NCBI GenBank assembly: GCA_003504275.1
Contig: DOAO01000014.1
Span: 8,889 to 72,888 of the forward strand
DNA from: Patescibacteria group bacterium
Lineage (GTDB): Bacteria; Patescibacteriota; Minisyncoccia; Phycocordibacterales; UBA12445
Length of the DNA stretch: 64,000 bases
Direction: 5' to 3'
Positions within the stretch are counted from its first letter, which is position 1; each line of letters opens with the position of its first letter. The position numbers were made by a program, and so were the translations under genes. Below the pieces are notes generated by a model. The model searched no databases and was not told the DNA's origin. It was given only the letters and a program-made list of their open reading frames with translations. Of the stretch, positions 5,941-63,433 are shown one piece after another.

Positions 5941-6741
5941 ATGAACAACCCACACCCTAAAAAATCACTGGGGCAGAACTTTTTAACGTCGCTATCCGCT
6001 CTAAGTAAAATAATAGAGACAGCGGGGCTTTCATCTGACGATATTGTACTAGAGATAGGACCGGGGAAGGGGGCACTCACAGCAGAGATACTTAAAAGCG
6101 GGGCGAAGGTCCTCGCGATAGAAAAAGACAACGAGCTTGTATCTTTTCTTTGCGAAAAATTTCAAAAAGAAGTGGAATTGGGACAACTCATAATCAGAAA
6201 TGAGGATATTTTGGATCTTATTCCTGAGGGTGAGCCGATAATAAAAAATAAATATAAAATAATAGCCAATATTCCGTATTACATCACGGGACAAATAATA
6301 AAAAAGTTTTTAACTGCAACCCATAAGCCGACAAAGATGGTTCTTCTCGTCCAGAAAGAGGTCGCAGAGAGAATTGTGGCTAAGGATGACAAAGAAAGCA
6401 TCCTCTCACTCAGTGTAAAAGCTTATGGCGAACCGAAATATATCCTTAAGGTAAGCCGCGGTTCTTTCTTTCCCGCACCAAATGTTGATTCGGCGATAAT
6501 ACTTATAGACAACATAAAAGAAAACTTTAAAAAGGGGGAAGAAAAAATGTTTTTTGATATCTTGCACGCCGGTTTCGGTCAAAAAAGAAAATTCTTACTT
6601 GGCAATTTGGTAAAAGTGTTTGGGAACAAAGAGAAGTTGACCGAAATATTTAATAAATACAAAATAGATTTAAAGGTGAGGGCGGAAGATTTGAAATTGG
6701 AAGATTGGAGAAAAATAACAGAGGCTATCGGAAATTTATAA
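5941..6741 (+). CDS. rsmA: 16S rRNA (adenine1518/1519-N6)-dimethyltransferase RsmA/KsgA
   Basis: LGQNFL signature, SAM-binding EIGPGKGALT, NIPY motif. Confidence 0.9.
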   Translation: MNNPHPKKSLGQNFLTSLSALSKIIETAGLSSDDIVLEIGPGKGALTAEILKSGAKVLAIEKDNELVSFLCEKFQKEVELGQLIIRNEDILDLIPEGEPIIKNKYKIIANIPYYITGQIIKKFLTATHKPTKMVLLVQKEVAERIVAKDDKESILSLSVKAYGEPKYILKVSRGSFFPAPNVDSAIILIDNIKENFKKGEEKMFFDILHAGFGQKRKFLLGNLVKVFGNKEKLTEIFNKYKIDLKVRAEDLKLEDWRKITEAIGNL

Positions 6742-19971: not shown

Positions 19972-21300
19972 ATGAACAATCAAAACTATCGCACACTAAT
20001 AATTGTAATATCACTGGTCATAATATTAGTCGTTGTACTAACCGTATTTCTCCTTTCTAGGCAAGAAACTGTTCCAGAACCAACGGTGACACAAAGTGCA
20101 CCATCTTCCACAGAAACAAAAAGTAATACGAGTTCCTTTCCAACATCAGAAAATGTAACTTCAACAGAGAAAGAAACCGCCCCAACCACACAAAATATTA
20201 TTCCGGAAATAAACCCCACCGAACAAGAAGTGGCGGTAACAGAAGAAGGGACAATCGTTGGAGAGATAAAAAATACAGCAGATATTGCCACCGGAGGAAT
20301 GACTTTTATTGAAAAAGATAGAAATGGAACTAAAACAACCTTTGTTAGATATATAGAAAAAGGAACAGGTCACATAAAAGAAATCGCTTTTGATGAAAAT
20401 ATTCCTACAAAAGTTTCAAATTACACAATACTAGGAATAGTCAATTCCTTATGGAGCAAAGACGGATCTTCTGTTGTTATAAGAAGATTAGATGGTGTAG
20501 ATAATAATATTCAAACAGTTTATGGAATAATAGAAACAGGTTCAAGTACTTCAACTATGCCGGAAGGGGAGGTAGGTACGCTAAACGGAACGATTCTTCC
20601 TTCAAATACTATTGATGTAGCAGTGTCACCTCAGGGAGATAGGCTATTTTATTTAATTAAAAATGGCGATTCAGTGACGGGAGCTGTTTCTGATTTTAAA
20701 GGAACTGACCCTTTCAACAAAAAAATAAATATTTGGAATTCACCTATATCAGAGTGGCAAATAACCTGGCCAAAACAAGACCAAATAATGTTATTAACCA
20801 AACCCGCCTATAATGTTTCCGGTATTCTTTATTCCCTCCTCGTTCCAAAAGACAACAAACAAGAGAAGTTACTCGGTGATATTACAGGATTAACTGCAAT
20901 TGTAAGCAATAGTGGTAAAAAAATAATATATTCAGAAACCACAGGTTCTGGTTTTATGACTTATATCTTAGACAAACAAAATAATGAATTAAAAGTATTT
21001 CCTGCAAAGACCCTACCAGAAAAATGTGTCTGGAGTAAAACAAACGAGAACGTTGTTTATTGTGGGGTTCCAAAAAATATAATTGGCTCAAAATATCCCG
21101 ATTCTTGGTATAAGGGGATAATATCATTTAATGACGATATCTACAGAATAGACCTGGACGTTAACTCAAAAAGAAAGATAGTGGTAACAGGTCAACCTGA
21201 TGGATTGGATGCAACAGGGCTCATATTAAGCACTAATGAAGACTACTTATCGCTCATCAACAAGAAAGATGGAAAGATTTGGACAATTAAATTAAAGTAA
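19972..21300 (+). CDS. membrane-anchored protein with Ser/Thr-rich linker and probable beta-propeller domain
   Basis: N-terminal TM helix, low-complexity S/T/E/P linker, repeated beta-strand-like blocks. Confidence 0.45.
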   Translation: MNNQNYRTLIIVISLVIILVVVLTVFLLSRQETVPEPTVTQSAPSSTETKSNTSSFPTSENVTSTEKETAPTTQNIIPEINPTEQEVAVTEEGTIVGEIKNTADIATGGMTFIEKDRNGTKTTFVRYIEKGTGHIKEIAFDENIPTKVSNYTILGIVNSLWSKDGSSVVIRRLDGVDNNIQTVYGIIETGSSTSTMPEGEVGTLNGTILPSNTIDVAVSPQGDRLFYLIKNGDSVTGAVSDFKGTDPFNKKINIWNSPISEWQITWPKQDQIMLLTKPAYNVSGILYSLLVPKDNKQEKLLGDITGLTAIVSNSGKKIIYSETTGSGFMTYILDKQNNELKVFPAKTLPEKCVWSKTNENVVYCGVPKNIIGSKYPDSWYKGIISFNDDIYRIDLDVNSKRKIVVTGQPDGLDATGLILSTNEDYLSLINKKDGKIWTIKLK

Positions 21301-49333: not shown

Positions 49334-49909
49334 TTACTTTCCTAATTCCTTTAACGCCCACTTCACTCTCTGTGATAATCCTTTTAATTCCGTCGGCATA
49401 TTTTTAATTGCCTTTCTCGCATCATTTGCAGTGTAGCCAAGAGACTTGATAGCCATAATAATATCAGATTCTTCTTTAAGGAATTCTCCGTCGCCGTCTT
49501 CTCCTTCTCTCATTTTATCTTTAAGTTCCAAAACAATTTTCTCAGCATTTTTAGCTCCAATACCCGAGACCTGTGTTAGATAAGAAATATCTTTCGAGGC
49601 GATAGCTTTTTTGAGGGTTTGGGTGGGGGCGATGGACATTATTCCAAGAGCTTTCTTCGGCCCGATACCAGAGACGGAAATAATTTTCTCGAAGAAATCT
49701 AGGTCATTTCTGTCCTCGAAGCCATAAAGGTCGAGTGCGTCCTCTTTAACCGAAAGATAAGTAAAAAGTGAAACCGTTTTGGTTTCTTCTTTCTCAAACT
49801 GGAAAAGCAGGTCTTTTGTAACCGCCACCTTAAAGCCAATGCCCGAAACGTTTATTATTACGAATTTGTCGCCAATATGAGATAATTTACCTTCAATTTG
49901 AGATATCAT
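49334..49909 (-). CDS. ruvA: Holliday junction DNA helicase RuvA
   Basis: N-terminal OB fold (IEGKL..VIINVSGIGF), HhH motifs, C-terminal domain. Confidence 0.8.
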   Translation of the reverse strand: MISQIEGKLSHIGDKFVIINVSGIGFKVAVTKDLLFQFEKEETKTVSLFTYLSVKEDALDLYGFEDRNDLDFFEKIISVSGIGPKKALGIMSIAPTQTLKKAIASKDISYLTQVSGIGAKNAEKIVLELKDKMREGEDGDGEFLKEESDIIMAIKSLGYTANDARKAIKNMPTELKGLSQRVKWALKELGK

Positions 49910-50074
49910 TTGAAAAAGAATTATGAATTAAGAATTATGAGTTAAGAATACCAAAGCTAGGCTAATATTGCGAGTGGTTACAAAGTCTTGCTTTTTTAGA
50001 TATATTGATGTAGTATTTATCTCGCAGTAAATTTTTGGCGTAATTCTTTATTCATAATTCATTATTCTTAAAGT

Positions 50075-50344
50075 ATGGCAATAACAAAGTCAGCAAAGAA
50101 AGCAGCAAGAGGATCTCTAAGAAAGAGAGTCTTCAACCTAAGGAGAGCGGGAGCCATGAGATCTTCTATAAAGGATGTCAGAAAGTTAGTTGTGGCTAAA
50201 AATATTGACGAAGCCAAAAAGAACTTGTCAGAGGCTTACAAAGCAATAGACAAGGCTATGAAGAAGGGGGTTATAAAGAAAAATACAGCTGCCAGAAAGA
50301 AATCAAGACTTGCACAGCTCGTCAAGAAGGCTTCAGTAAAATAA
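50075..50344 (+). CDS. rpsT: 30S ribosomal protein S20
   Basis: 89-aa basic helical protein with KSAKKA...RKRV and TAARKKSRL. Confidence 0.85.
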   Translation: MAITKSAKKAARGSLRKRVFNLRRAGAMRSSIKDVRKLVVAKNIDEAKKNLSEAYKAIDKAMKKGVIKKNTAARKKSRLAQLVKKASVK

Positions 50345-50352
50345 CAAATTTA

Positions 50353-50385
50353 AAAACACCTTATCAAACGATAAGGTGTTTTTTA
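50353..50385. terminator. bidirectional intrinsic terminator
   Basis: aacaccttatc-aaac-gataaggtgtt with flanking A-run and T-run. Confidence 0.7.
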
Positions 50386-52177: not shown

Positions 52178-52267
52178 GGAAGGGTGGCAGAGCGGTCGAT
52201 TGCACCAGTCTTGAAAACTGGAGTCTCCGCAAGGGGACCGTGAGTTCGAATCTCACCCCTTCCGCCA
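52178..52267 (+). tRNA. tRNA-Ser (anticodon TGA), CCA encoded
   Basis: GGAAGGGTGGCAGAGCGGTCGATTGCACCAGTCTTGAAAACTGGAGTCTCCGCAAGGGGACCGTGAGTTCGAATCTCACCCCTTCCGCCA; long variable arm, perfect acceptor. Confidence 0.9.
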
Positions 52268-52356: not shown

Positions 52357-53025
52357 ATGAATTCCAGAATTCGTGAAGCAATATATAGCATAGGCGAAAG
52401 ACTAACAACAGATAGTTCATATTCAAAATATGATGATTTGGAATGTAATTTATCTGAGGGCATTATTCCAAGAGGATTAATGTATGAAGAGGATAATCGA
52501 AATGTTGATGCAGTAGGATGTGTTATGGTTGGCCTTAACCCAGGCAAGGCAACTAAAAAAGAGCAAGATTTTTTTAAATCCGAACCACTTTCTTACGAAA
52601 GATTTTTGTTGTATTGGAAAGAAAACGTACTTCAACATCCTTACTACAAACGACTTAGAAAACTTGCTGATGAGCTAGAGTTCGACGGTCCTATCCTATG
52701 GACTGAACTTGTGAAATGCCAAGGCAAAGAAAATGGACAATTGACCGTGCAGACAATTAGAGATGATATCAATAAATATCTTTTTCCCGAGTTAGAGAAT
52801 ATTCCTGCTAATTGGCCATTATTCGGAATTGGCAACCAAGCTTTTGAAATATTGAGTTATCGTTTCCCCGATAGATTAGTTTTAGGAATTCCGCATCCGA
52901 CAGGGTCATATGGACTATTTCCAAAATTATTTGAAGGTCAAAAAATAAGACAGGATATTTTTAACCATACCAAGAAGATTTTAACATCTAAAGAAAAAAT
53001 TGCCGTAAAATTAGGTAAGTTTTAA
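52357..53025 (+). CDS. hypothetical protein with faint UDG-superfamily-like motifs
   Basis: GLNPGKATKKEQ (resembles UDG motif A GxxPGxxE) and GIPHPTGSYG (resembles motif B HPSP) at appropriate spacing. Confidence 0.3.
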   Translation: MNSRIREAIYSIGERLTTDSSYSKYDDLECNLSEGIIPRGLMYEEDNRNVDAVGCVMVGLNPGKATKKEQDFFKSEPLSYERFLLYWKENVLQHPYYKRLRKLADELEFDGPILWTELVKCQGKENGQLTVQTIRDDINKYLFPELENIPANWPLFGIGNQAFEILSYRFPDRLVLGIPHPTGSYGLFPKLFEGQKIRQDIFNHTKKILTSKEKIAVKLGKF

Positions 53026-53076: not shown

Positions 53077-54075
53077 TTATTTTGTCCAAAGAACCTCGTA
53101 TTTAAACCCTACATGTTTTTCAGATTCCTGTCTTCTGTCTTCTGGTACCGACACTACAATTCTTTTATCTCCTGCAAACGGCTCAGCATGCAGGTTGCAT
53201 AGATAAACCATCAATAGTTCAAAAATTGTTAACAAACTTAGAGTTGTTGATTCCATAAAGACAGCAATCTGCATTTTAGATAGATTATATTCCTTACCCT
53301 TGTACGATATGGAGGGTAGATCAATGTTGTTCGTAAGATTTAATTTATAATTTTCTACCGTAAAAACATCGTCCCGCAATTCACCGTATGGATGTTCTAT
53401 TTTGTTTCGTATTGTGCGAGTTTTTTCCGTAAATTTTTTAAATGTTTGAATGAAAATAGTAAAAGGATCATCATCGCCCAATTCGGTTTTGATTGTTTTA
53501 CACAAAAGTTCTTCCCACCCTTTCCCTTTAACGTCTGGATAAAATAAGTTGGTAATTTCCATGATTGATCTCATTGCATGATCGGTATTTGAGATGAACC
53601 CCTTTACCTTTTGTTCCAAGTTTGGAAGCGCTGGTATTTGAAGACTCTTTCCTTGCGAAGAGATACTAGAGGTTATGCTTTCTTCTTCAGCTATATATTC
53701 GTCCTTTAGTTTATCTAGCGCAGTAATTTCTCTCAAGAAAGAAAGTGAAATACTTATGCCTTTATTATGATCTACACTTTTGGGTAGGGTATGTTCTTTA
53801 AATAGAAAACTAGCTTGTTGAAATGTTCTGCCAACAAATTCATTATCCGAACCATATGGAAGTATGTGCTGTACATTGTGGTCTATATTTGGGTTTGTTC
53901 TCTGTGGGTCAACTGAATCAGCCATTAAAACCATGCGGATATTCTTTCTGGTAATACACATAAGTTGGTCATCTACTCCCACAAGAGCAGATAAGTTGTC
54001 GCCAACTTCTGATCCAACATTAAAAGCACCCCCTTGGGAACGGTATGCAAATGGATCGTTATTACCTGAGTTCAT
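53077..54075 (-). CDS. hypothetical protein (island cargo)
   Basis: 332-aa ORF co-oriented downstream of the recombinase. Confidence 0.4.
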   Translation of the reverse strand: MNSGNNDPFAYRSQGGAFNVGSEVGDNLSALVGVDDQLMCITRKNIRMVLMADSVDPQRTNPNIDHNVQHILPYGSDNEFVGRTFQQASFLFKEHTLPKSVDHNKGISISLSFLREITALDKLKDEYIAEEESITSSISSQGKSLQIPALPNLEQKVKGFISNTDHAMRSIMEITNLFYPDVKGKGWEELLCKTIKTELGDDDPFTIFIQTFKKFTEKTRTIRNKIEHPYGELRDDVFTVENYKLNLTNNIDLPSISYKGKEYNLSKMQIAVFMESTTLSLLTIFELLMVYLCNLHAEPFAGDKRIVVSVPEDRRQESEKHVGFKYEVLWTK

Positions 54076-54099: not shown

Positions 54100-55422
54100 C
54101 TAATCCATGAAGGTTAATCCTTTATCTTTGTAAATTATTCTCGATCTTAGATTCGCCAGTAATTCTCTTTTTTCGCCAACCGTACCCTCTTTGAGGATAT
54201 ACTTGGCGAAATTTCTTATATCAGTATCCTGATTGTTTTTAATCTTTTCTGTTGCACCAAGCACTGATCTTTGGAAGATGTTAAATCTCGCAATTTCATC
54301 CTCCAGTTTCTGTCTCATACCCAACTCATTGATATTTACCTTGTCCAATATCTTGAGTAGTTCAGTTATCAAATCTTCTTCGCGTATATAATGATTCTTG
54401 CAGTTTCTATCTCTCGCTCTGCTACATGAATAGTAGATGTATTTAGCGTGCGTTCCATCCTTGAGCTGTTTCCACTTTTCCTCGGCAGATATTCCGCTTC
54501 CACAATATCCGCAAGTAAATAATTTAGTAAATGCGAATTCTCTATTTTCTCTTTGTATATTATCTCGTTTCAGTTGCGCCTGAGCTTTTTCAAATAGTTC
54601 TTGTGTAATTAATGGCTCGTGTTTCCCTTGATACCAATTACCGCTACCTTTCGGTGATTCAAATGTTCCGTAGTAAAAATGGCTTTCCAGTATCCGATAC
54701 ACACCAGCAAGTGTTAGTGGTTTGTTTCCTCTTGTGTAAAAATTGGCTTCAAATCGAAGCCAATTGTATATCTTTCTACCACTTAGTTTTTCGTATGCCA
54801 CTTTTTCAAATATCTTTTTAATCACTGGCGCTCTTTGCGGATCAACTATTACTTGGCATTTCTTATCCATGTGTTTTTGATTCAGGTATCCAAGCGGTGC
54901 TACGCCCGGCCATAATCCCATTTCAACTCTCGTTCGTAGTCCACGCTTCACGTTTACACCCCTGTTATCATTCTCAAGTTTTGCTTGTGATCCGAGAATC
55001 ATCAGCAAGAATTTTTCGTTTGGATTGTTTGAAAACTTTTGACCGAATGTTCTTATTTCTTGGAGAAGTCCTGCATCCATTAAGTCCACGATCTTGCCGA
55101 GGTCACCAGCATTTCTACTGATACGATCGGGTGCCCATGTGAGAATAGCGTTATACTTTTTGGCTCGTATTTCATCTACAATTTCGTTAAAGACTGGTCT
55201 TTGCCCAGTTTCCTTAGCTGAATGACTTTCTCGCTTCATACAAACTACCTCTAAACATTCTCGCTCGGCAAGCTGAAGCATCTCTTTTATCTGCGAATCT
55301 ATGGAAAGTATCTGTCTTTCCTCGGATTCTGTTGATTTACGGGCATATAGGCAATACCTGACTTTGACCGCTTGAGGCTGTATTTGGGGCACCTCATAAC
55401 CTTTTGGGGCTGTTATTTTCAT
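54100..55422 (-). CDS. large serine recombinase (resolvase/integrase family)
   Basis: N-terminal resolvase motif YARKSTESEERQILSIDSQ (catalytic Ser), recombinase domain, Cys-rich zinc ribbon (CGYCGS...CSRARDRNC). Confidence 0.8.
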   Translation of the reverse strand: MKITAPKGYEVPQIQPQAVKVRYCLYARKSTESEERQILSIDSQIKEMLQLAERECLEVVCMKRESHSAKETGQRPVFNEIVDEIRAKKYNAILTWAPDRISRNAGDLGKIVDLMDAGLLQEIRTFGQKFSNNPNEKFLLMILGSQAKLENDNRGVNVKRGLRTRVEMGLWPGVAPLGYLNQKHMDKKCQVIVDPQRAPVIKKIFEKVAYEKLSGRKIYNWLRFEANFYTRGNKPLTLAGVYRILESHFYYGTFESPKGSGNWYQGKHEPLITQELFEKAQAQLKRDNIQRENREFAFTKLFTCGYCGSGISAEEKWKQLKDGTHAKYIYYSCSRARDRNCKNHYIREEDLITELLKILDKVNINELGMRQKLEDEIARFNIFQRSVLGATEKIKNNQDTDIRNFAKYILKEGTVGEKRELLANLRSRIIYKDKGLTFMD

Positions 55423-55532: not shown

Positions 55533-57278
55533 ATGAAAACCTATGAACATTTGACATTATATTTGGAGTCTGATAGACTTGTATTAAACAATATGAGAAA
55601 AGACATACAAGAAAAACTAAAAGGAATGCTGGAGTTACTCTCTATCGGTCAGGTAGCAGAGATTTTTAGCATTCACCAAGACACTTTAAGAAACTGGGAG
55701 AAAGACGGCACCCTCGTTCCCCTTAGAGTTGGCCCACGCAAAGATCGCAAATATCGTCCGCAAGATATTCAAGCGATCGTGGACAAAATGGGTAGCAAAT
55801 TAACCCTGCCCCAACTTGAAGCTTTCCTTTGGAAGAGTGCAGATATTCTTCGAGGGAAAATTGATAGTTCGGATTATAAAAAATATATCTTCGGTCTTTT
55901 GTTTTATAAACGAATGAGTGATGTGTGGGATGAAGAATACGAATCAGTAATGAAAGGATATAACGATAAGATAATCGCTGGCGCCGACTATAATCACCGT
56001 TTTCAAGTTCCAAAGGATTGCAAATGGGCAGTTGTTACTGAACAAGCAGAAAGTATCGGTCAAAAGTTAAATGATATTTTTGAAAAACTCGCCAATGCCA
56101 ATAGTCCAAAGTTGGACAGAATCTTTGATGATCTTGATTTTTCAAATAGAGATCGTTTTCCAAATGAAACACTCCAAAGACTTATTAACCACTTTTCTCA
56201 ATATAATTTTGGTAATACCTATATCAGCTCCGATCTCTTGGGTGATGCTTACGAATATCTCATCAAACAATTCGCGGCAGATGCAGGGAAAAAAGGTGGG
56301 GAGTTCTACACGCCTCGTGAAGTTGAAAAAGTTATTATCGGAATTTTAAAACCCCACCAGAAAGATCATATATATGATCCAACTGCTGGATCAGGGGGCT
56401 TCCTGCTTGAAGCATATGATTACTTAAAACATAAATCTGGTGAAAAGATTGCCAAAACACTCTATCTTTATGGGCAAGAATTAAATATCAGTACTTTTGC
56501 CATCGCAAAAATTAATATGTTTTTACATGGTCTTGATAGTGCTGACATTCGCCGTGGCGACACACTCGCTAATCCGCAGTTTCTAACACAAAATGGCAAT
56601 CTACAAACATTCGACATCGCGGTCGCAAATCCTCCCTACTCAATTAAAGATTGGGAGTCAGAAATTTTCAGAACAAACAAATATGGACGACTTGAGGGAT
56701 ACGATATGCCTCCTGAAAAAAATGCGGATTACGCTTTTGTTTTGCATATCATTAAATCAATGAACGTAAACGGCAGGGCTGGTATTGTACTTCCTCATGG
56801 GGTTCTATTCCGAGGCGGTGCTGAGGGGCGTATTCGTGAGCAGATTCTTAAAAACGATCTTATTGAAGCCGTTATCGCTTTGCCAGCTAAACTTTTCTAT
56901 GGCACAGGCATTCCAGCCGCGGTTTTGATTCTTAATAAAAATAAACCAGAAAATAAGAAAAATAAGGTTTTGATTATTGATGCTGAGAAAGACTTCCTTG
57001 AGGGTAAAAATCAAAACTCTCTTAGGTCACAGGATATAAATAAAATTGTAAAAGCATATGATGTTTATTCTGATATCGAAAAATATGCACGGGTAGTTGA
57101 TATAAAAGAAATTACTGAGAATAACTATGATTTAAATATTAATCGATACATTGACACTTCTGAACAGGAAGAGGTAATCGATGTTAAATCTGCGTGGGAT
57201 GATTTAAAGAAACTAGAAAAAGAGCGTGAGACAATAAATAAAAAAGTCGACGGATTTCTTAAGGAATTAAATTATTAA
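55533..57278 (+). CDS. hsdM: type I restriction-modification N6-adenine DNA methyltransferase HsdM with N-terminal MerR/excisionase-like HTH extension
   Basis: HsdM_N pattern LEAFLWKSADILRGKID from residue ~86, SAM motif DPTAGSGGFL, catalytic NPPYS; residues 1-85 form an HTH (IGQVAEIFSIHQDTLRNWEKDGTL). Confidence 0.85.
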   Translation: MKTYEHLTLYLESDRLVLNNMRKDIQEKLKGMLELLSIGQVAEIFSIHQDTLRNWEKDGTLVPLRVGPRKDRKYRPQDIQAIVDKMGSKLTLPQLEAFLWKSADILRGKIDSSDYKKYIFGLLFYKRMSDVWDEEYESVMKGYNDKIIAGADYNHRFQVPKDCKWAVVTEQAESIGQKLNDIFEKLANANSPKLDRIFDDLDFSNRDRFPNETLQRLINHFSQYNFGNTYISSDLLGDAYEYLIKQFAADAGKKGGEFYTPREVEKVIIGILKPHQKDHIYDPTAGSGGFLLEAYDYLKHKSGEKIAKTLYLYGQELNISTFAIAKINMFLHGLDSADIRRGDTLANPQFLTQNGNLQTFDIAVANPPYSIKDWESEIFRTNKYGRLEGYDMPPEKNADYAFVLHIIKSMNVNGRAGIVLPHGVLFRGGAEGRIREQILKNDLIEAVIALPAKLFYGTGIPAAVLILNKNKPENKKNKVLIIDAEKDFLEGKNQNSLRSQDINKIVKAYDVYSDIEKYARVVDIKEITENNYDLNINRYIDTSEQEEVIDVKSAWDDLKKLEKERETINKKVDGFLKELNY

Positions 57279-57279
57279 T

Positions 57280-58437
57280 ATGACCATATCTCAAAATACA
57301 ATTCCAAAAGGATGGTCTGTAAAACAAATTGGTGATCTGTTGAATTTTGAACGGCCTGATAATTATATTGTCGAGAGCGAAAGCTATAATCAAAAAAACA
57401 ATATTCCAGTTCTCACGGCTAACAAATCTTTTATTTTAGGTTATACAAACGAGGATTTTGGTATATACAAAAATATTCCAGCTATCATTTTTGATGATTT
57501 TACTACTGATAGTAAGTTCGTGGATTTTCCATTTAAAGTTAAGTCTTCTGCTATTAAAATTTTGAAATCTAAAGAAGAGAATTATGATTTAAGATTTGTT
57601 TATGAATTGATGAAGTCGATTAATTTTCAAATCGCTAATCATAAACGACACTATATCTCTCAGTATCAATATTTAGAAGTAAAAATGCCACCGATTGCGG
57701 AACAAAAAAAGATCGCAGAAATTTTGTCTACCGTTGATGAAGAAATTCATAAGACCAGTGAAATAATTGCTCAAACTGAAAATTTAAAAAATGGGATTTC
57801 GAAACACCTTTTCACAAGAGGTGTTGGACACGATAAATTTCAGAAGACGAAGATCGGAGACATTCCAAAAGAATGGAATTTTTTGAAAATGAAAGATATT
57901 TGTACGGTAAGCCAAGGATTACAGATCCCTATCTCTAAAAGATTTAAGGATCCAGGAGAAAACAGATATAAATATATTACTCTTAAAAATATCAAAGAAG
58001 ATACTTATGAATACATAGAATCACCCAAAGAAAGCGTGATTTGTAAAAAAGATGATGTTCTCATGACAAGAACTGGTAATACTGGTGTAGTTGTTACTGA
58101 TGTGGAAGGTGTCTTTCATAATAATTTTTTTCTTATTGATTTTGACCGAAAGAGAATAGATAGAAACTACCTAGTTTATTATTTGAGAGGCGAGCCAATC
58201 AAAAAACTTTTGTTGGAGCGAGCAGGCACAACAACTATACCAGACCTTAATCACGGCGCTTTTTACGGAATACATTTTTTATTACCAGATTTAACCGAAC
58301 AAAGAAAGATTTCAGACATTTTATCCTCAATCGACAACAAAATACTGTTTAATAAAGAAATGAGAGCCAAACTTACTGATCTTAAAAAGGGATTAATGCA
58401 GGATTTGTTAAGTGGAAACAAAAGAGTAAAGGTATGA
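57280..58437 (+). CDS. hsdS: type I R-M specificity subunit HsdS
   Basis: two TRDs separated by conserved MPPIAEQKKIAEIL and C-terminal LLPDLTEQRKISDIL repeats. Confidence 0.75.
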   Translation: MTISQNTIPKGWSVKQIGDLLNFERPDNYIVESESYNQKNNIPVLTANKSFILGYTNEDFGIYKNIPAIIFDDFTTDSKFVDFPFKVKSSAIKILKSKEENYDLRFVYELMKSINFQIANHKRHYISQYQYLEVKMPPIAEQKKIAEILSTVDEEIHKTSEIIAQTENLKNGISKHLFTRGVGHDKFQKTKIGDIPKEWNFLKMKDICTVSQGLQIPISKRFKDPGENRYKYITLKNIKEDTYEYIESPKESVICKKDDVLMTRTGNTGVVVTDVEGVFHNNFFLIDFDRKRIDRNYLVYYLRGEPIKKLLLERAGTTTIPDLNHGAFYGIHFLLPDLTEQRKISDILSSIDNKILFNKEMRAKLTDLKKGLMQDLLSGNKRVKV

Positions 58438-59240
58438 GCCAAATTCAACAAACAACAGAAGACTTGCAAAAACAACTTGATTCACAGTTGGAGCTTTTAA
58501 GTGTACTGTCTGATTTATATGATCAAGGACAAACCGTGGTTGCAAAATCAATCGCATCCTCAATAAGGGTTCTATTACATAAAACTCAGCAGTCTCACTC
58601 CTTACTGTCCCAACTTAAGTTAGAAGATACGGATTTTTTTGATTCATGCCTTGTTGATGGCATCCCTGAAGATTATGAGAAAGTAAAAAGGTTAGGTAGC
58701 TACGCCGGACTTTTTGGAATTGGTATCAGCAGTGAGGAAACCACTTATGTGCCATATCTGGATGATATCCCTGGCAAGAACCCAAAGCACGCTAAGTACG
58801 AGGATTATTGGAATAGAATTGTTTTTTACGACAAAAATAACGGTACTTTTACACGTAAAGAGATTGTTCTTGCCGTAGCGAATAAAGATGGTGGTTCGCA
58901 TGTCGATCCATTTTTGGATAAGAAGTATGTTGATTTAGCTAAAAATAATTCTCTTGGATGGGAAGGGTCGGCAAACAACCAACAACATAAACCGCCAGAA
59001 GGTGCCGAGCTGGCGGCAATGAGACAAATAGCCCACGAAGTTTTACGTACTTTTGTAAAAAATTATCCTCAAAAGAAAATGTCTTACGGAGGTAAAAAAC
59101 CATTTGCTGTAATGGCTGGAACAGGACCAATAATTGGTATTAAAAAAAGAAACCCGAAAGATTTAGTACCAAAGGTTGGCAGAAACGATAAATGCCCGTG
59201 CGGAAGTGAAATAAAGTATAAAAAGTGTCATGGTAAATAA
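58434..59240 (+). CDS. SEC-C-motif protein embedded in the type I R-M operon
   Basis: 268 aa; ATGA overlap with hsdS stop; N-terminal coiled coil; C-terminal CPCGSEIKYKKCHG zinc-binding SEC-C motif. Confidence 0.5.
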   Translation: MSQIQQTTEDLQKQLDSQLELLSVLSDLYDQGQTVVAKSIASSIRVLLHKTQQSHSLLSQLKLEDTDFFDSCLVDGIPEDYEKVKRLGSYAGLFGIGISSEETTYVPYLDDIPGKNPKHAKYEDYWNRIVFYDKNNGTFTRKEIVLAVANKDGGSHVDPFLDKKYVDLAKNNSLGWEGSANNQQHKPPEGAELAAMRQIAHEVLRTFVKNYPQKKMSYGGKKPFAVMAGTGPIIGIKKRNPKDLVPKVGRNDKCPCGSEIKYKKCHGK

Positions 59241-59241
59241 T

Positions 59242-59952
59242 ATGAAATTTAACGAACAAATTATTTATAAGCAATACCCCTTAAGGAGTAATTTTGATTT
59301 TCAACATGCCACTCCATTTGATTGGGCGACCATTGGTACTTTTTCAGCCATTATTGTTGCTTTATTGATAGCATTATTTCAGGATCGGATTAGAGAATTG
59401 TGGAATCGGGCAGAACTAGAAATAAAGATTTCTATGACTCCTCCTGATTGTCATAAAATAGGACTTCATGGACAGAACGGAAATTTTATTCAGAATTGTA
59501 TTTATTTACGAGCACGAGTTACAAACGTTGGTAGAAAACCTGCGGAAAATACAGAGATTATGATTTCTAAATTATGGGAAATAGATGAATTAGGAAATGA
59601 AAAAATTGTGGAAACTTTTTTGCCAATGAATTTAGCATGGAGCCATTACAGAACTAACAATATTCGTATTCCTGCCGGCGTATTTAGACATTGTGACATT
59701 GGTGATATTCGAGATCTTATTCACCACACAGAAACACAAATGAGATTTGATATTATTGTGCAACCATACAGAGTTGACGGAGATAAATATCCAAACATAG
59801 TTAGTTCTGGAAAATATAAATTTGAGCTCATCACATCGGCAGATAATGCCATTTCCAGTCAATCTTTATGGGAACTAGAATTTGATAAAGTGTGGGTGGA
59901 AGATGAAAAAGAAATGTTGGAAAAACATATACACATAAAGAAAATAATATGA
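59242..59952 (+). CDS. single-TM membrane protein embedded in the type I R-M operon
   Basis: track ORF 59230..59952; likely start at 59242 (MKFNEQ, identical initiation context to hsdR); TM helix TIGTFSAIIVALLIALF; TGA overlaps the hsdR ATG. Confidence 0.45.
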   Translation: MKFNEQIIYKQYPLRSNFDFQHATPFDWATIGTFSAIIVALLIALFQDRIRELWNRAELEIKISMTPPDCHKIGLHGQNGNFIQNCIYLRARVTNVGRKPAENTEIMISKLWEIDELGNEKIVETFLPMNLAWSHYRTNNIRIPAGVFRHCDIGDIRDLIHHTETQMRFDIIVQPYRVDGDKYPNIVSSGKYKFELITSADNAISSQSLWELEFDKVWVEDEKEMLEKHIHIKKII

Positions 59953-62861
59953 AATTTAACGAACAATATACAATTGAATACCACATCATAAAATTCATAC
60001 GAGAAAAACTCGGTTATGAATATATTCCTGCGGAAGAATTTTCTAAACTCCGCTCTTTTGAAACCGAGTATGTTATTACTTCCCATCTTTTAGAAGCGGT
60101 AAAGAAAATCAACAATATTGACGATGTTGTCGCGCAAAGCATTGTAAGAGAAGTTAAAAAGTCAGACACGAACGAAGCGTTTCTACTTGCCATGCGAAAC
60201 GGTATCAATTTGAAAGATCCAAACACCGGCAATTTTCGTGACTATAAGATAGTTGATTTTGATAATCCAGAAAACAATCACTTCGTTATTACTAATCAAT
60301 TCTATTTTGAAGGAGTAACCGAAAATATCCGACCCGATGTATTAATTTTTCTTAATGGTTTACCGATTTGCGATATTGAAGCCAAAAGCCCCACTGCTTC
60401 CAGTAGTGTTAACTTTGAAAACGCGATTGACCAACTAAAGCGATACGAGAAAGTCGCACCAAAGCTTTTCTTGCCTAACTGCCTTAATATCGCTACCGAT
60501 GGCCTCAAAACCGTTTATGGAGCGACTTATTCCCCAAAGCAGTACTTCCTTGCTTGGCGCGAAGACCCACAGGTAGAAAAGAAAGTTTTTGAAGAAGAAC
60601 TTGATTCCACGCTTTTCTTTTTGCTTGATCAAAAACAGATTCTTGATCTTATTAAAAACTTTATTGTCTTTGAGAAAAAGAAAGACGGGATTACTAAAAA
60701 GATTACCAGATATCAGCAATTTTACGCGGCCAATAAAATCGTTGCTCGTGTTCAAGACGGCGAGAGAAAGAAGGGTTTGATTTGGCATACACAAGGGTCC
60801 GGCAAAACACTCACGATGTTTTTCACGGCGTGGAAGCTTCGCTATAACCCTGAATTGAAAAATCCCAAGGTATTTATTTTGATTGACCGTATTGATCTTG
60901 ATGATCAAGTTTACGAAGAATTTGAAAGCTGGGGTGGACAAAACCTCGTCAGAGTGGAGTCACGCAAAGACCTTGAGAAGAAAATCAAAGGAGCCGACCG
61001 AGGTATCTTTATTTCAACTATTCAGAAATTCAGCGAGTTGGAAGAGATAGAAAATATCGATGGTAACGTTATTGTGCTTTCTGACGAAGCCCACCGAGAC
61101 AACGAGGGTGTTTCAGCAATTAAAATGCGTAATGCTTTTAAGGATGCTTTCTTTTTTGGATTTACTGGAACACCAATTGATAAGCTAACTCTCAATACTC
61201 ACAGAAACTTCGGCGAAGAAGGAGAACGTTATCTTGATTATTATTCCATTCAGCAAGCCATTGATGATGGCGCTACTTTGCCAGTTACTTATGAAGCCCG
61301 TCTTTCCAAATTCTTTATTGATGAGGAAAAAGTGGATCAACAATTTAATGAACTTACTGTCGACTTGAATGATAAGCAAAAAGAATTGCTCACTAAAAAA
61401 TACGGCAAAAAGGAGGCTCTGGTTAAGTTAGACAAAAGGATGGAAGCGGTTGCTCAAGATATTATTGAGCATTACAAACTTTACGTTTTGCCAAATGGAT
61501 TTAAAGCTCAGGTCGTTTGTTATGACCGCGAAGCCACAGCAAAATACAAACAACTTTTTGATAAGTTAGTCCCAGCTGAATGGTCTGAGGTTGTCTATTC
61601 CCCAGGAGATCCCAATAGCGAAAGTGATGATTTAAAGAAATACAATACCAATAAACAGAAGCGAGAGAAAATAATTGAACAATTCAAGGATCCAAGTCAT
61701 CCACTTAAATTTTTACTTGTCTGCGACATGCTTTTGACTGGCTTTGACGCTCCAGTTGAACAGGTAATGTATTTGGACAAACCACTTCGTGATCACAACC
61801 TACTTCAAGCAATCGCCCGTACAAACCGAGTGTTTCCAAACAAAGGATGCGGAAAGATTATTGATTACTACGGCGTGACTAAAAACCTTTACGACGCACT
61901 TAATTTTGACGAGAGTGTGGTTGATAGCGCCATGGTGGATATCAACCGTCTCAAAGAAGAATTTTCAAAAGTTATCGGCGAAATAATGGAATTGTTTGTA
62001 GGAGTAAATATTGAAGATCCATCCATAGACAACTTGCGCCGATGCCTGAAGATATTTATTGAAAATCAAAGTAAACAGCAATATTTCAAAGATAAATACA
62101 GCCGACTCAAAATGTTGTTTGAGATTCTTTCGCCTGATCCATTCTTAATGGAGTACCTCCGCAAGTTTGAATGGATTACCAGTTTTTATTTGGCATTCGT
62201 AAAAGAATTCCAAATTGATGATGTGGATGCTTTTTCACTTGCCGAATACGGAGAGAAAATAAAAAGCTTGATTCAACAGAAGATTGACTACGAGGGCATC
62301 ACTAAAAACTTCCGAGAATTAAATATCCACGATTTAGCTACCCTAAACAAATTGGATAAACTTCCCGAAGAAGAGAAAGCTCTTAATCTTGAAAAAATGT
62401 TAAAGCGTGAGATTTCAATTAACATTGATACTCATCCGGCATTCAAAAAATTCAGCGAGCGACTTATTGCTATTCGTGTTGAGTTTGAAAAACATCAGAT
62501 TGATTTGGCGGAAAGAATAAAACGCTACTACGAACTTCTAAACGATATCAAAACAAAGACAGAAGAAGCAAAGGAGTTGGGTTACACCCTCCGCGAATAT
62601 GGCCTGTTTGTAATCTCCGATGAGTTTATTAGCGAATCTGACAAGGATGTTGTTAAGGAGTTTGTAAAAGAAATGGCCGCACGACTTGAAGATGTTCTTG
62701 ATGAGAATTGGCAAGATTCATCAAAAAGAGAAGAGTTTCTCAAAGAAGCAAAACGAACTCTGCAAGAATTGATTCTTAAGGATTACAAAGACAAAATAAA
62801 AGTTTCTGATTTCCACAAATATCTCAATAGGCTAGTGGATGTTGTAATAAAGCGATTTTAA
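59949..62861 (+). CDS. hsdR: type I restriction enzyme R subunit HsdR
   Basis: helicase motif I GSGKT, DEAH box LSDEAHRD, motif III TGTP, motif VI QAIARTNR. Confidence 0.85.
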   Translation: MKFNEQYTIEYHIIKFIREKLGYEYIPAEEFSKLRSFETEYVITSHLLEAVKKINNIDDVVAQSIVREVKKSDTNEAFLLAMRNGINLKDPNTGNFRDYKIVDFDNPENNHFVITNQFYFEGVTENIRPDVLIFLNGLPICDIEAKSPTASSSVNFENAIDQLKRYEKVAPKLFLPNCLNIATDGLKTVYGATYSPKQYFLAWREDPQVEKKVFEEELDSTLFFLLDQKQILDLIKNFIVFEKKKDGITKKITRYQQFYAANKIVARVQDGERKKGLIWHTQGSGKTLTMFFTAWKLRYNPELKNPKVFILIDRIDLDDQVYEEFESWGGQNLVRVESRKDLEKKIKGADRGIFISTIQKFSELEEIENIDGNVIVLSDEAHRDNEGVSAIKMRNAFKDAFFFGFTGTPIDKLTLNTHRNFGEEGERYLDYYSIQQAIDDGATLPVTYEARLSKFFIDEEKVDQQFNELTVDLNDKQKELLTKKYGKKEALVKLDKRMEAVAQDIIEHYKLYVLPNGFKAQVVCYDREATAKYKQLFDKLVPAEWSEVVYSPGDPNSESDDLKKYNTNKQKREKIIEQFKDPSHPLKFLLVCDMLLTGFDAPVEQVMYLDKPLRDHNLLQAIARTNRVFPNKGCGKIIDYYGVTKNLYDALNFDESVVDSAMVDINRLKEEFSKVIGEIMELFVGVNIEDPSIDNLRRCLKIFIENQSKQQYFKDKYSRLKMLFEILSPDPFLMEYLRKFEWITSFYLAFVKEFQIDDVDAFSLAEYGEKIKSLIQQKIDYEGITKNFRELNIHDLATLNKLDKLPEEEKALNLEKMLKREISINIDTHPAFKKFSERLIAIRVEFEKHQIDLAERIKRYYELLNDIKTKTEEAKELGYTLREYGLFVISDEFISESDKDVVKEFVKEMAARLEDVLDENWQDSSKREEFLKEAKRTLQELILKDYKDKIKVSDFHKYLNRLVDVVIKRF

Positions 62862-62863
62862 TT

Positions 62864-63433
62864 ATGAAGAAAAAAATCGAGCTACACAAAAAGAAAGTCG
62901 AATACACCCTCAAGGTGAGCAAGCGAGCCAGGCGGATGAGACTGGCTATCTATTGTGATGGCAATTTTGTGGTTACTGCTCCGCGAAATATGAGCGATAA
63001 TATCATCGAGCAATTCATAATTAGAAAATCGCAGTGGATACTTGATAAGTTGGATTATTTCAAAAGCATTTCTGGGCAAGTATTCGCTAAAGGCACTAAA
63101 AAGGATTATACGGAATACAAAGACCATGCAATGGCTTTAGCTGAAAAGCGAATTGAATATTTTAATAAAACTTACGGTTTTAGATTCAACAAGATAAATA
63201 TAAAAAACCAGAAAACTCGTTGGGGTAGCTGTTCAAGAAAAGGTAATCTGAATTTTAATTACAAAATCGCTCTACTCCCCGAGAAATTGGCTGACTATAT
63301 TATAGTTCACGAGCTATGTCACCTAAAAGAATTTAACCACTCACAAAAATTTTGGAATCTGGTTGCCAAAATGATGCCTGATTATCTTGAGATCAGGAAT
63401 GAGCTGAAAAGGAGCGGAATTAAGTCTGTCTAA
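62864..63433 (+). CDS. DUF45/YgjP-family zinc metallohydrolase
   Basis: HELCHLKEFNH HExxH motif; common accessory of type I R-M loci. Confidence 0.65.
   Translation: MKKKIELHKKKVEYTLKVSKRARRMRLAIYCDGNFVVTAPRNMSDNIIEQFIIRKSQWILDKLDYFKSISGQVFAKGTKKDYTEYKDHAMALAEKRIEYFNKTYGFRFNKINIKNQKTRWGSCSRKGNLNFNYKIALLPEKLADYIIVHELCHLKEFNHSQKFWNLVAKMMPDYLEIRNELKRSGIKSV

Follow-up and report, generated by a model that had tools for sequence, protein, structure and literature searches.

Type I restriction-modification (R-M) counts among the commonest bacterial defences, and Patescibacteria, with their reduced genomes, have it as a principal one. Genes nested within type I operons are an established phenomenon, with PrrC, the Campylobacter rlo genes and TgvAB in V. 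cholerae as described cases. PrrC (PrrC/EcoprrI) is an anticodon nuclease of E. coli whose gene lies inside a type Ic R-M locus; in the literature, we found worked-out functions for the embedded genes PrrC and TgvAB. In the 'guilt-by-embedding' survey that is the source of the HEC and PDC models in PADLOC, most genes nested within type I, BREX and DISARM systems were defence genes; PrrC occurred almost exclusively within type I R-M loci, and autonomous systems were embedded now and then (Payne et al. 2024). Here, we describe two uncharacterised genes located between hsdS and hsdR in a type I operon of a Patescibacteria group bacterium (assembly GCA_003504275.1, contig DOAO01000014.1). The operon lies in a stretch of 64,000 nucleotides (the window), whose positions are used as coordinates throughout; loci from other genomes are designated by L numbers and have their own coordinates.

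The first gene (58434-59240) encodes a protein of 268 amino acids (aa) that ends in a SEC-C zinc knuckle (hereafter the SEC-C protein); the second (59242-59952) encodes a protein of 236 aa with a single transmembrane (TM) segment (the TM protein). Both are on the forward strand, in the order hsdM-hsdS-SEC-C-TM-hsdR-YgjP, and the six genes overlap or are 1-2 nucleotides (nt) apart. The host type I system has HsdM, HsdS (57280-58437, forward, with two stretches of Methylase_S) and HsdR (59949-62861, forward, with HSDR_N, SWI2_SNF2, ResIII and a T1R_D3-like domain) all present, intact and co-oriented based on Pfam annotations. The start of the SEC-C gene overlaps the stop of hsdS in an ATGA at 58434-58437, its own stop codon is 1 nt from the ATG of the TM gene, and the stop of the TM gene overlaps the ATG of hsdR in another ATGA at 59949-59952. 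A preliminary description of the window had given this gene order and both couplings with their coordinates, and all are borne out by the list of open reading frames (ORFs), the sequence and Pfam. It had also described the second gene as encoding a single-TM protein of ~237 aa; the single TM segment stands and the length is corrected to 236 aa, counted from the ATG of MKFNEQ. An alternative upstream ATG at 59230 would make the TM protein 240 aa, but this ATG sits in the codons for a conserved His-Gly of the SEC-C tail, and its presence is probably incidental, MKFNEQ being the better start call. No convincing internal terminator was detected in the operon by a promoter and terminator scan, which returned fewer hits than it did in shuffled sequence.

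On balance, we favour a reading in which these are two independent embedded accessory genes, the TM gene being functionally tied to type I R-M and a 25-bp direct repeat at the starts of the TM gene and hsdR being the scar of an insertion. Two unrelated genes of independent origin would then occupy the hsdS-hsdR slot of an island-borne operon. Both ORFs are maintained coding genes under purifying selection. The ratio of nonsynonymous to synonymous substitution rates (dN/dS) was obtained from four diverged copies of the island (the window, L001, L002 and L003), and is 0.06-0.10 for the SEC-C gene (dS 0.3-0.9) and 0.14-0.21 for the TM gene (dS 0.13-0.70), compared with 0.01 for hsdR (dS 0.7-1.0) and 0.03-0.14 for hsdM. 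Given these low values across diverged copies, the two ORFs have been maintained as genes and the arrangement is old, not a recent accident.

Judged by their distribution, the two genes are independent occupants of the slot and not an obligate pair, because each occurs without the other. The SEC-C gene is found without the TM gene in L004, L241 and L242/L243, and the TM gene without the SEC-C gene in L161, L171, L180-L182, L189, L152 and L162-L165. Profile searches detected both genes together in only 6 of ~235 loci, which belong to two lineages, that of the window and L167. The preliminary description had instead proposed one R-M-gated toxin or abortive-infection module of two obligate genes, in which a membrane effector would be paired with a sensor or adaptor that binds zinc. 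The shared slot and the translational coupling agree with such a module, as does the co-occurrence of the genes in the swapped order hsdS-TM-SEC-C-hsdR in L167, where HsdR is only 35% identical. However, each gene stands alone in close operons (for example L161, whose HsdR is 88% identical to that of the window, has the TM gene only), and more than 140 SEC-C-family loci are without a TM gene. The single module is thus not supported, and we regard it as highly improbable.

The genomic context of the TM family was examined in 80 metagenomic loci and six exact look-ups, which reduced to 70 non-redundant loci. The 19 loci with the highest profile scores (35-99% identity) make up the subclade of the window protein, and the 51 lower-scoring loci a distant clade. 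An hsdS gene lies within 6 kb in 15 of the 19 subclade loci; among the four that remain, two are flanked upstream by under 1 kb of sequence. In contrast, neither hsdS nor hsdM was detected in any of the 51 distant-clade loci, about a dozen of which have at least 3 kb on both sides, and this clade has no conserved partner except D12 methyltransferases in three loci. Over the 70-locus set, the immediate upstream neighbour of the TM gene is a Methylase_S protein in 10 of 42 cases and the immediate downstream neighbour carries HsdR domains in 6-7 of 47 (Pfam annotations); other neighbours, each seen singly, are EcoRV, N6_N4 and D12 methyltransferases, an AAA_21 ATPase and an AbiH-like protein. The proposal of the preliminary description that embedding in the R-M operon is meaningful is therefore upheld for the TM subfamily, which, like PrrC, is almost only found embedded. 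Measured against the yardstick of Payne et al., these embedding frequencies make the TM subclade resemble an R-M-dependent factor and the SEC-C family an autonomous module. The TM protein is probably an accessory factor that relies on R-M and is anchored at the membrane's inner face.

The position of the TM gene relative to the hsd genes varies. It lies directly between hsdS and hsdR in L161, L181, L182 and L189, whereas other coding sequence (x) intervenes on the hsdS side in L171 and L180 (hsdS-x-TM-hsdR) and on the hsdR side in L152 (hsdS-TM-x-hsdR). L167 has the order hsdS-TM-SEC-C-hsdR given above. In L162 and L163 hsdR is upstream (hsdR-hsdM-hsdS-TM), and L169 reads hsdM-S-R-TM. Based on these architectures, the TM gene tracks hsdS more closely than hsdR. 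The comparison of the window with L161 bears on the same association: HsdR and HsdM are 88% and 84% identical, respectively, while the TM protein is only 41% and HsdS 29% identical. A backbone this close, combined with a diverged TM protein and HsdS, suggests that the hsdS-TM segment was exchanged as a unit. Nucleotide homology with L161 sets in again inside the 3' end of the TM gene, 74 bp ahead of the hsdR ATG (59875-59948 in the window, L161:5941-6014), and points to a recombination breakpoint within the TM gene.

Across these operons, the interval between hsdS and hsdR behaves as a variable accessory slot that also holds unrelated ORFs of 132, 229 and 277 aa, AAA_15/21 ATPases and an AbiH-like protein. 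Other ORFs of the slot (229 aa and 350 aa in L152, 277 aa in L180 and 277 aa in L242) were compared with the two families and have no homology to either. This variability, the recombination activity indicated by the junction duplications described below and the location of most members of both families outside R-M operons would all fit two passengers, that is, mobile or selfish cassettes tolerated at the hsdS-hsdR junction and functionally unrelated to restriction or defence. We consider this quite unlikely in view of the purifying selection over dS ~0.13-0.9, the strictly conserved orientation and coupling, the strong enrichment in the subclade (15/19) and the other neighbours, which are also R-M or defence genes. 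Embedded genes are, moreover, mostly defence genes (Payne et al. 2024).

The TM protein belongs to a large family without annotation. A first search returned 12 relatives and a profile search at least 557; the exhaustive profile search detected 2,812 clusters (50% identity) at E <=1e-3, of which 435 at E <=1e-30. The identical protein has been deposited for 'Parcubacteria group bacterium GW2011_GWF2_38_76'. Of the 150 clusters listed, nearly all are single-domain proteins of ~205-265 aa, the exceptions being three fragments (164-186 aa) and some proteins with N-terminal extensions (up to 325 aa). None of the 120 listed proteins searched matches Pfam, and the window protein is likewise without a family match. 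Residues D69, C70, E105, the stretch FLPMNL.WS (126-134), C151, D152 and D170 are invariant in the family alignment (A2), as are G190, Y192, N202, W218 and E222.

The AlphaFold2 (AF2) model of the TM protein (predicted local distance difference test score, pLDDT, 85) has an N-terminal helix followed by a beta-sandwich, after a disordered N-tail. Its one hydrophobic segment, WATIGTFSAIIVALLIALF, spans aa 28-46 (59323-59379, forward; Kyte-Doolittle maximum 2.26), and the AF2 helix covers aa 28-54. In most of 120 family members the hydrophobic helix is at the very N-terminus. These 120 proteins have on average 2.64 Lys and Arg residues in the 15 residues after the helix and 0.41 before it, and the count is higher on the C-terminal side in 113 of them. 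Because of this charge excess, the topology is predicted to be N-out/C-in with a cytoplasmic beta-sandwich domain spanning aa 55-236, and the protein is predicted to be neither secreted nor a pilin. A type IV pilin or archaellin was rejected, as the TM protein does not combine a class III signal peptide, a prepilin peptidase site immediately ahead of the hydrophobic helix and an extracytoplasmic globular domain. A RelE match of the TM profile in the PDB (E 0.02-0.05) covers the helix region and was judged to be noise. As modelled, a cytoplasmic beta-sandwich fits either an effector or a tether. No R-M accessory protein with a membrane-anchored cytoplasmic domain was found in the literature and databases searched.

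The guard logic of PrrC is a plausible analogy for the function of the TM protein. In this scenario, the Hsd complex would keep the protein inactive, and a block of restriction would lead it to oligomerise and compromise the membrane. This PrrC-like guard with a membrane effector is the mechanism that we prefer, tentatively. By inferred architecture alone (one N-terminal TM helix and a cytoplasmic beta domain), the TM protein can be likened to Cam1 and Cap15, which are membrane-disrupting abortive-infection effectors with a single or few TM helices and a cytoplasmic sensor domain; the arrangement of a TM helix and a cytoplasmic Ig-like domain also recalls Kir/KirBac.

About equally likely, and as a possibility to be held no more firmly, the TM protein may be a non-toxic structural accessory, namely a membrane tether or assembly regulator that would place the HsdM2S or HsdR complex at the inner membrane face, at the entry site of foreign DNA, or control HsdR loading. 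In operons of differing order, the TM gene nearly always follows hsdS directly and is translationally coupled to it, and the globular domain is predicted to be cytoplasmic on a single N-terminal anchor, both as a tether would have it. EcoKI is reportedly associated with the cytoplasmic membrane. However, the invariant polar residues D69, C70, E105, N130, S134, C151, D152 and D170 suggest more than a passive anchor, and closely related operons do without the TM gene (L004, L241). The TM gene also evolves much faster than hsdR and hsdM (dN/dS 0.14-0.21 versus 0.01-0.14), which is unusual for a core structural partner, its product being 41% identical where HsdR is 88%. More broadly, and still doubtful, the TM subfamily could be an obligate partner of type I R-M, a previously unrecognised fourth component spreading as a promoterless cassette. 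It would be either a guardian that, on inhibition of restriction, kills or arrests the cell via the membrane, or a tether that positions the enzyme where DNA enters. Such a cassette would integrate at the hsdS-3'/hsdR-5' junction and duplicate this junction, so that translational coupling is preserved. Either way, one clade of an unannotated family of ~2,800 clusters occupies almost only the place behind hsdS in type I operons, and the TM protein is a concrete, clonable candidate for the coupling of R-M to the membrane or to abortive infection.

The repeat at the start of the TM gene bears on how this gene entered the operon. The 25-mer AAATAATATGAAATTTAACGAACAA occurs exactly at 59235-59259 (forward), where it is a duplicated hsdR translation-initiation region and provides the MKFNEQ start of the TM gene, and at 59942-59966 (forward), the resident initiation region of hsdR, which also begins MKFNEQ. 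No further copy was found in the window when up to three mismatches were allowed, and none in 100 dinucleotide shuffles. The perfect 25-bp repeat reported in the preliminary description is therefore real, with two copies only in the window, and the idea that a gene was inserted at the start of hsdR with duplication of the initiation region gains support from L004 and L241, which by their sequence are empty sites. In L004, from another Parcubacteria genome (SEC-C protein 82% and HsdR 72% identical), the TM gene is absent and hsdR (MKFNEQY) begins 3 nt after the SEC-C stop codon. The L004 junction equals the left flank of the first repeat copy joined to the right flank of the second, and the two blastn alignments of the window to L004 overlap by 29 bp in L004. 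In L241, an independent context, the SEC-C gene is directly followed by hsdR with no TM gene. The survey of related R-M loci that had been suggested thus gave both states, the TM gene being absent in L004 and L241 and present with both repeat copies in L001-L003 and L158. As the copies in L001-L003 are both there and slightly diverged (2-4 positions), the insertion event is old.

The N-terminus of the TM protein is consistent with such an event. Distant homologs start M-x-x-x-I-I-x-Q-x-P and the window protein has MKFNEQ then IIYKQYP, from which it appears that the TM ORF was joined in frame after hsdR codon 6 and lost its own first codons. The TM ORF would have been spliced in at this point, the hsdR initiation region being duplicated and the 25-bp repeat left as a scar. 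The borrowed N-terminus probably costs nothing, because residues 1-23 of the TM protein are predicted to be disordered (AF2). With the hsdR initiation region duplicated, both the TM gene and hsdR retain the same ribosome-binding context and translational coupling.

Junction duplications were also found in two other loci. Upstream of its TM gene, L180 has a decayed copy (23/26) of the hsdR start, which persists as a mini-ORF of 12 codons (MKFIKKGEIKNV, L180:9947-9992). The mini-ORF shares nucleotides with both of its neighbours, its ATG with the stop of the 277-aa gene before it and its stop with the ATG of the TM gene, an arrangement that reads as a translational-coupling relay. In L167, it is the 3' end of hsdS that is duplicated around the TM gene, as a 63-nt direct repeat with 84% identity (L167:5510-5572 and 6262-6324), and the TM protein consequently carries an HsdS-like tail; the TM protein of L152 has a decayed version of this tail. 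As read from the sequences, the duplication in the window, L180 and L167 preserves stop-start coupling on both sides of the inserted ORF. The insertion could have occurred by Campbell-type integration of a circle via short homology or, alternatively, by one illegitimate and one homologous crossover between two operons. The duplications at these three loci show how a new ORF can enter a tightly coupled operon and leave translation intact. Accessory genes embedded in type I R-M systems are known; what this locus and its relatives add is the PrrC-like confinement of a membrane-anchored subfamily and a recurrent junction-duplication footprint.

The repeat could also be more than a scar and have been kept for a function: as a translation-initiation or regulatory element common to both genes, it would set the TM:HsdR ratio. 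Two observations would agree with this, the 25/25 match in the window despite the age of the arrangement (dS up to ~0.7-1.0 versus L001-L003) and the retention of the L180 copy as a 12-codon mini-ORF coupled stop-to-start to the TM gene. On the other hand, the N-terminus of HsdR constrains the hsdR copy anyway, the copies diverge in sister loci and the TM gene is without any such repeat in L161 and L171. A function of this kind seems unlikely to us, and it would be compatible with the repeat having arisen as a scar.

The SEC-C protein has a single Pfam match, the C-terminal SEC-C motif at aa 250-268 (PF02810, 59181-59237, forward; E 9.5e-9, 35.4 bits against a gathering cut-off of 20.4). Its zinc knuckle CPCGSEIKYKKCH, located by regular expression at aa 254-266, has the C-x-C-x(8-9)-C-[HC] pattern of SEC-C motif proteins. 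The core (aa 2-210) matches the profile of phrog_7805 over its full length (positions 5-213 of 218, E 1.2e-47), and a structural match to an uncharacterised protein of Gordonia phage Bowser agrees with this assignment. The AF2 model of the 268-aa protein has a pLDDT of 89. The near end-to-end match is to the core only: the PHROG family is unannotated and most of its phage members are without the SEC-C tail. No solved fold matches the core; the profile search against the PDB reaches the tail alone (zinc-binding tails of SecA and YchJ). The profile and structure searches proposed for both proteins in the preliminary description hence led to phrog_7805 for the SEC-C core and left the TM protein without a known family. 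Residues D30, G32, R45, W126, R141, G153, G154, H156, R197 and E202 are invariant in the SEC-C family alignment (A1), and the polar signature adds H49, N-K/Q-D/E-G-G-A/S-H-V/I-D at 150-158 and R-Q-I-A/G-H-E at 197-202. The core may be a catalytic domain that depends on metal, while the knuckle could act as a targeting tail, like that of SecA. The zinc-binding tail of SecA binds SecB and ribosomes.

A homolog search returned 112 relatives of the SEC-C protein, and a scan for the family motif picked up 368 loci among GTDB species representatives, spread over many bacterial phyla and some archaea, as well as 67 IMG/VR viral contigs. The C-terminus varies in the family, the SEC-C tail being one alternative among several: many homologs end near residue 210 or bear other extensions. 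Based on tblastn, family members in or beside type I operons are confined to the closest relatives (L001-L005 and L241-L243, 73-93% identity), L167 (45%) and the Lactococcus plasmid pNCDO184J, where the gene, at 20238-21047 of the plasmid, comes right after hsdR-M-S. More than 140 further loci are outside type I operons, with neither TM nor hsd genes adjoining, and no conserved neighbour or partner was detected among ~140 loci. The neighbours include integrases (5 of 99 downstream genes surveyed), prophage tail, terminase and lysis genes, RloB, Abi_alpha and NERD. Family members are found on prophages, plasmids (including 6-kb plasmids of lactic acid bacteria) and genomic islands, mostly as a solo gene. 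By this distribution, the family behaves like an autonomous accessory or defence-type gene that is occasionally embedded, and we infer that the SEC-C protein of the window is an autonomous single-gene defence or abortive-infection-type module of the kind now and then found in R-M operons. With its phrog_7805 core and variable tail, this is a second widespread family, and a single-gene defence candidate on phages, plasmids and islands. In phage PL-1 (L238:3483-5505), the family gene is part of the lysogeny module, directly upstream of a tyrosine integrase and in the same orientation, and the same arrangement is seen on a 6.3-kb plasmid of L. plantarum (L240:470-1944).

Compared with PrrC and RloC, the two window genes share the location within a type I hsd operon in the same orientation, but both proteins lack an ABC-ATPase or P-loop and an anticodon-nuclease domain, and their cores match no PADLOC or Pfam family. 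Neither contains a Walker A motif ([AG]xxxxGK[ST]) or matches an ATPase family in Pfam, NCBIfam or PADLOC, in agreement with the earlier statement that the absence of a P-loop separates them from PrrC/RloC homologs. Neither protein has a HEPN match in Pfam. The SEC-C protein has no Rx4-6H motif (its conserved RQIAHE is Rx3H), and the two Rx4-6H strings of the TM protein are at non-conserved positions, unlike in a HEPN-like nuclease. In PADLOC v2.0.0, the TM protein has no match at E up to 1 and the SEC-C protein matches through aa 241-268 only, this tail reaching PDC-S12 and E2 models. Since neither core matches any PADLOC v2.0.0 model, the two families appear to be undescribed as defence candidates.

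Other described systems resemble the locus in part. As with the guilt-by-embedding candidates and TgvAB, from the VPI-2 type I operon of V. cholerae, uncharacterised genes are nested in the operon in the same orientation, and the SEC-C family is mostly non-embedded and occasionally embedded, like the autonomous systems of that survey. Unlike TgvAB and the PDC candidates, the window proteins have no GmrSD, ATPase or nuclease domain. Rugutis is a lactococcal single-gene abortive-infection system with a SEC-C motif that is activated by phage c2's large terminase. It is plasmid-borne and, like the SEC-C protein, joins the knuckle to a domain whose fold has no match in the PDB; however, the motif is N-terminal in Rugutis and the rest of the protein is unrelated to the window protein. 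Rugutis was accordingly rejected as a homolog: when A1 was compared with the Rugutis protein (359 aa) by hhalign, the alignment spanned 24 columns and took in the SEC-C motif only. The Lactococcus plasmid pUCCL633A carries both the Rugutis gene and a homolog of the 268-aa protein without the SEC-C motif (L156:4001-4885, L157:42084-43163); the homolog is the ORF at 49475-50359 of the plasmid.

The operon looks like the cargo of a serine-recombinase island whose far end is past the window. A large serine recombinase (54100-55422, reverse strand; Resolvase, Recombinase and Zn_ribbon_recom in Pfam) precedes hsdM, and recombinases 49-94% identical to it occupy the same position in L001-L004, L161, L171 and L180. 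A tRNA-Ser(tga) gene (52178-52267, forward; ARAGORN) immediately upstream of the recombinase and R-M block is the likely integration flank of the island, and is followed by two ORFs without a family match (52357-53025, forward, and 53077-54075, reverse). Neither the island nor the two genes stand out in guanine-plus-cytosine content.

The hsdM gene (55533-57278, forward) encodes N6_Mtase (E 1.9e-110) and HsdM_N domains and, at the N-terminus, a MerR-type helix-turn-helix (MerR_1, PF13411, aa 37-81, E 5e-8) that is also present in HsdM of L241 and L242 and may permit autoregulation of the operon. The last gene of the operon encodes a YgjP-like (DUF45) metallopeptidase (62864-63433, forward; PF01863, E 2.8e-47) and follows hsdR after a 2-nt spacer; it is in the same place in L001-L004 and L171 and is an unexplained member of the operon. 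In L001 (3079-5406) and L002 (1666-3993), the HsdM ORF is 775 aa long and a separate hsdS is absent, which suggests an apparent M-S fusion. L003 has an additional ORF of 493 aa between hsdM and hsdS.

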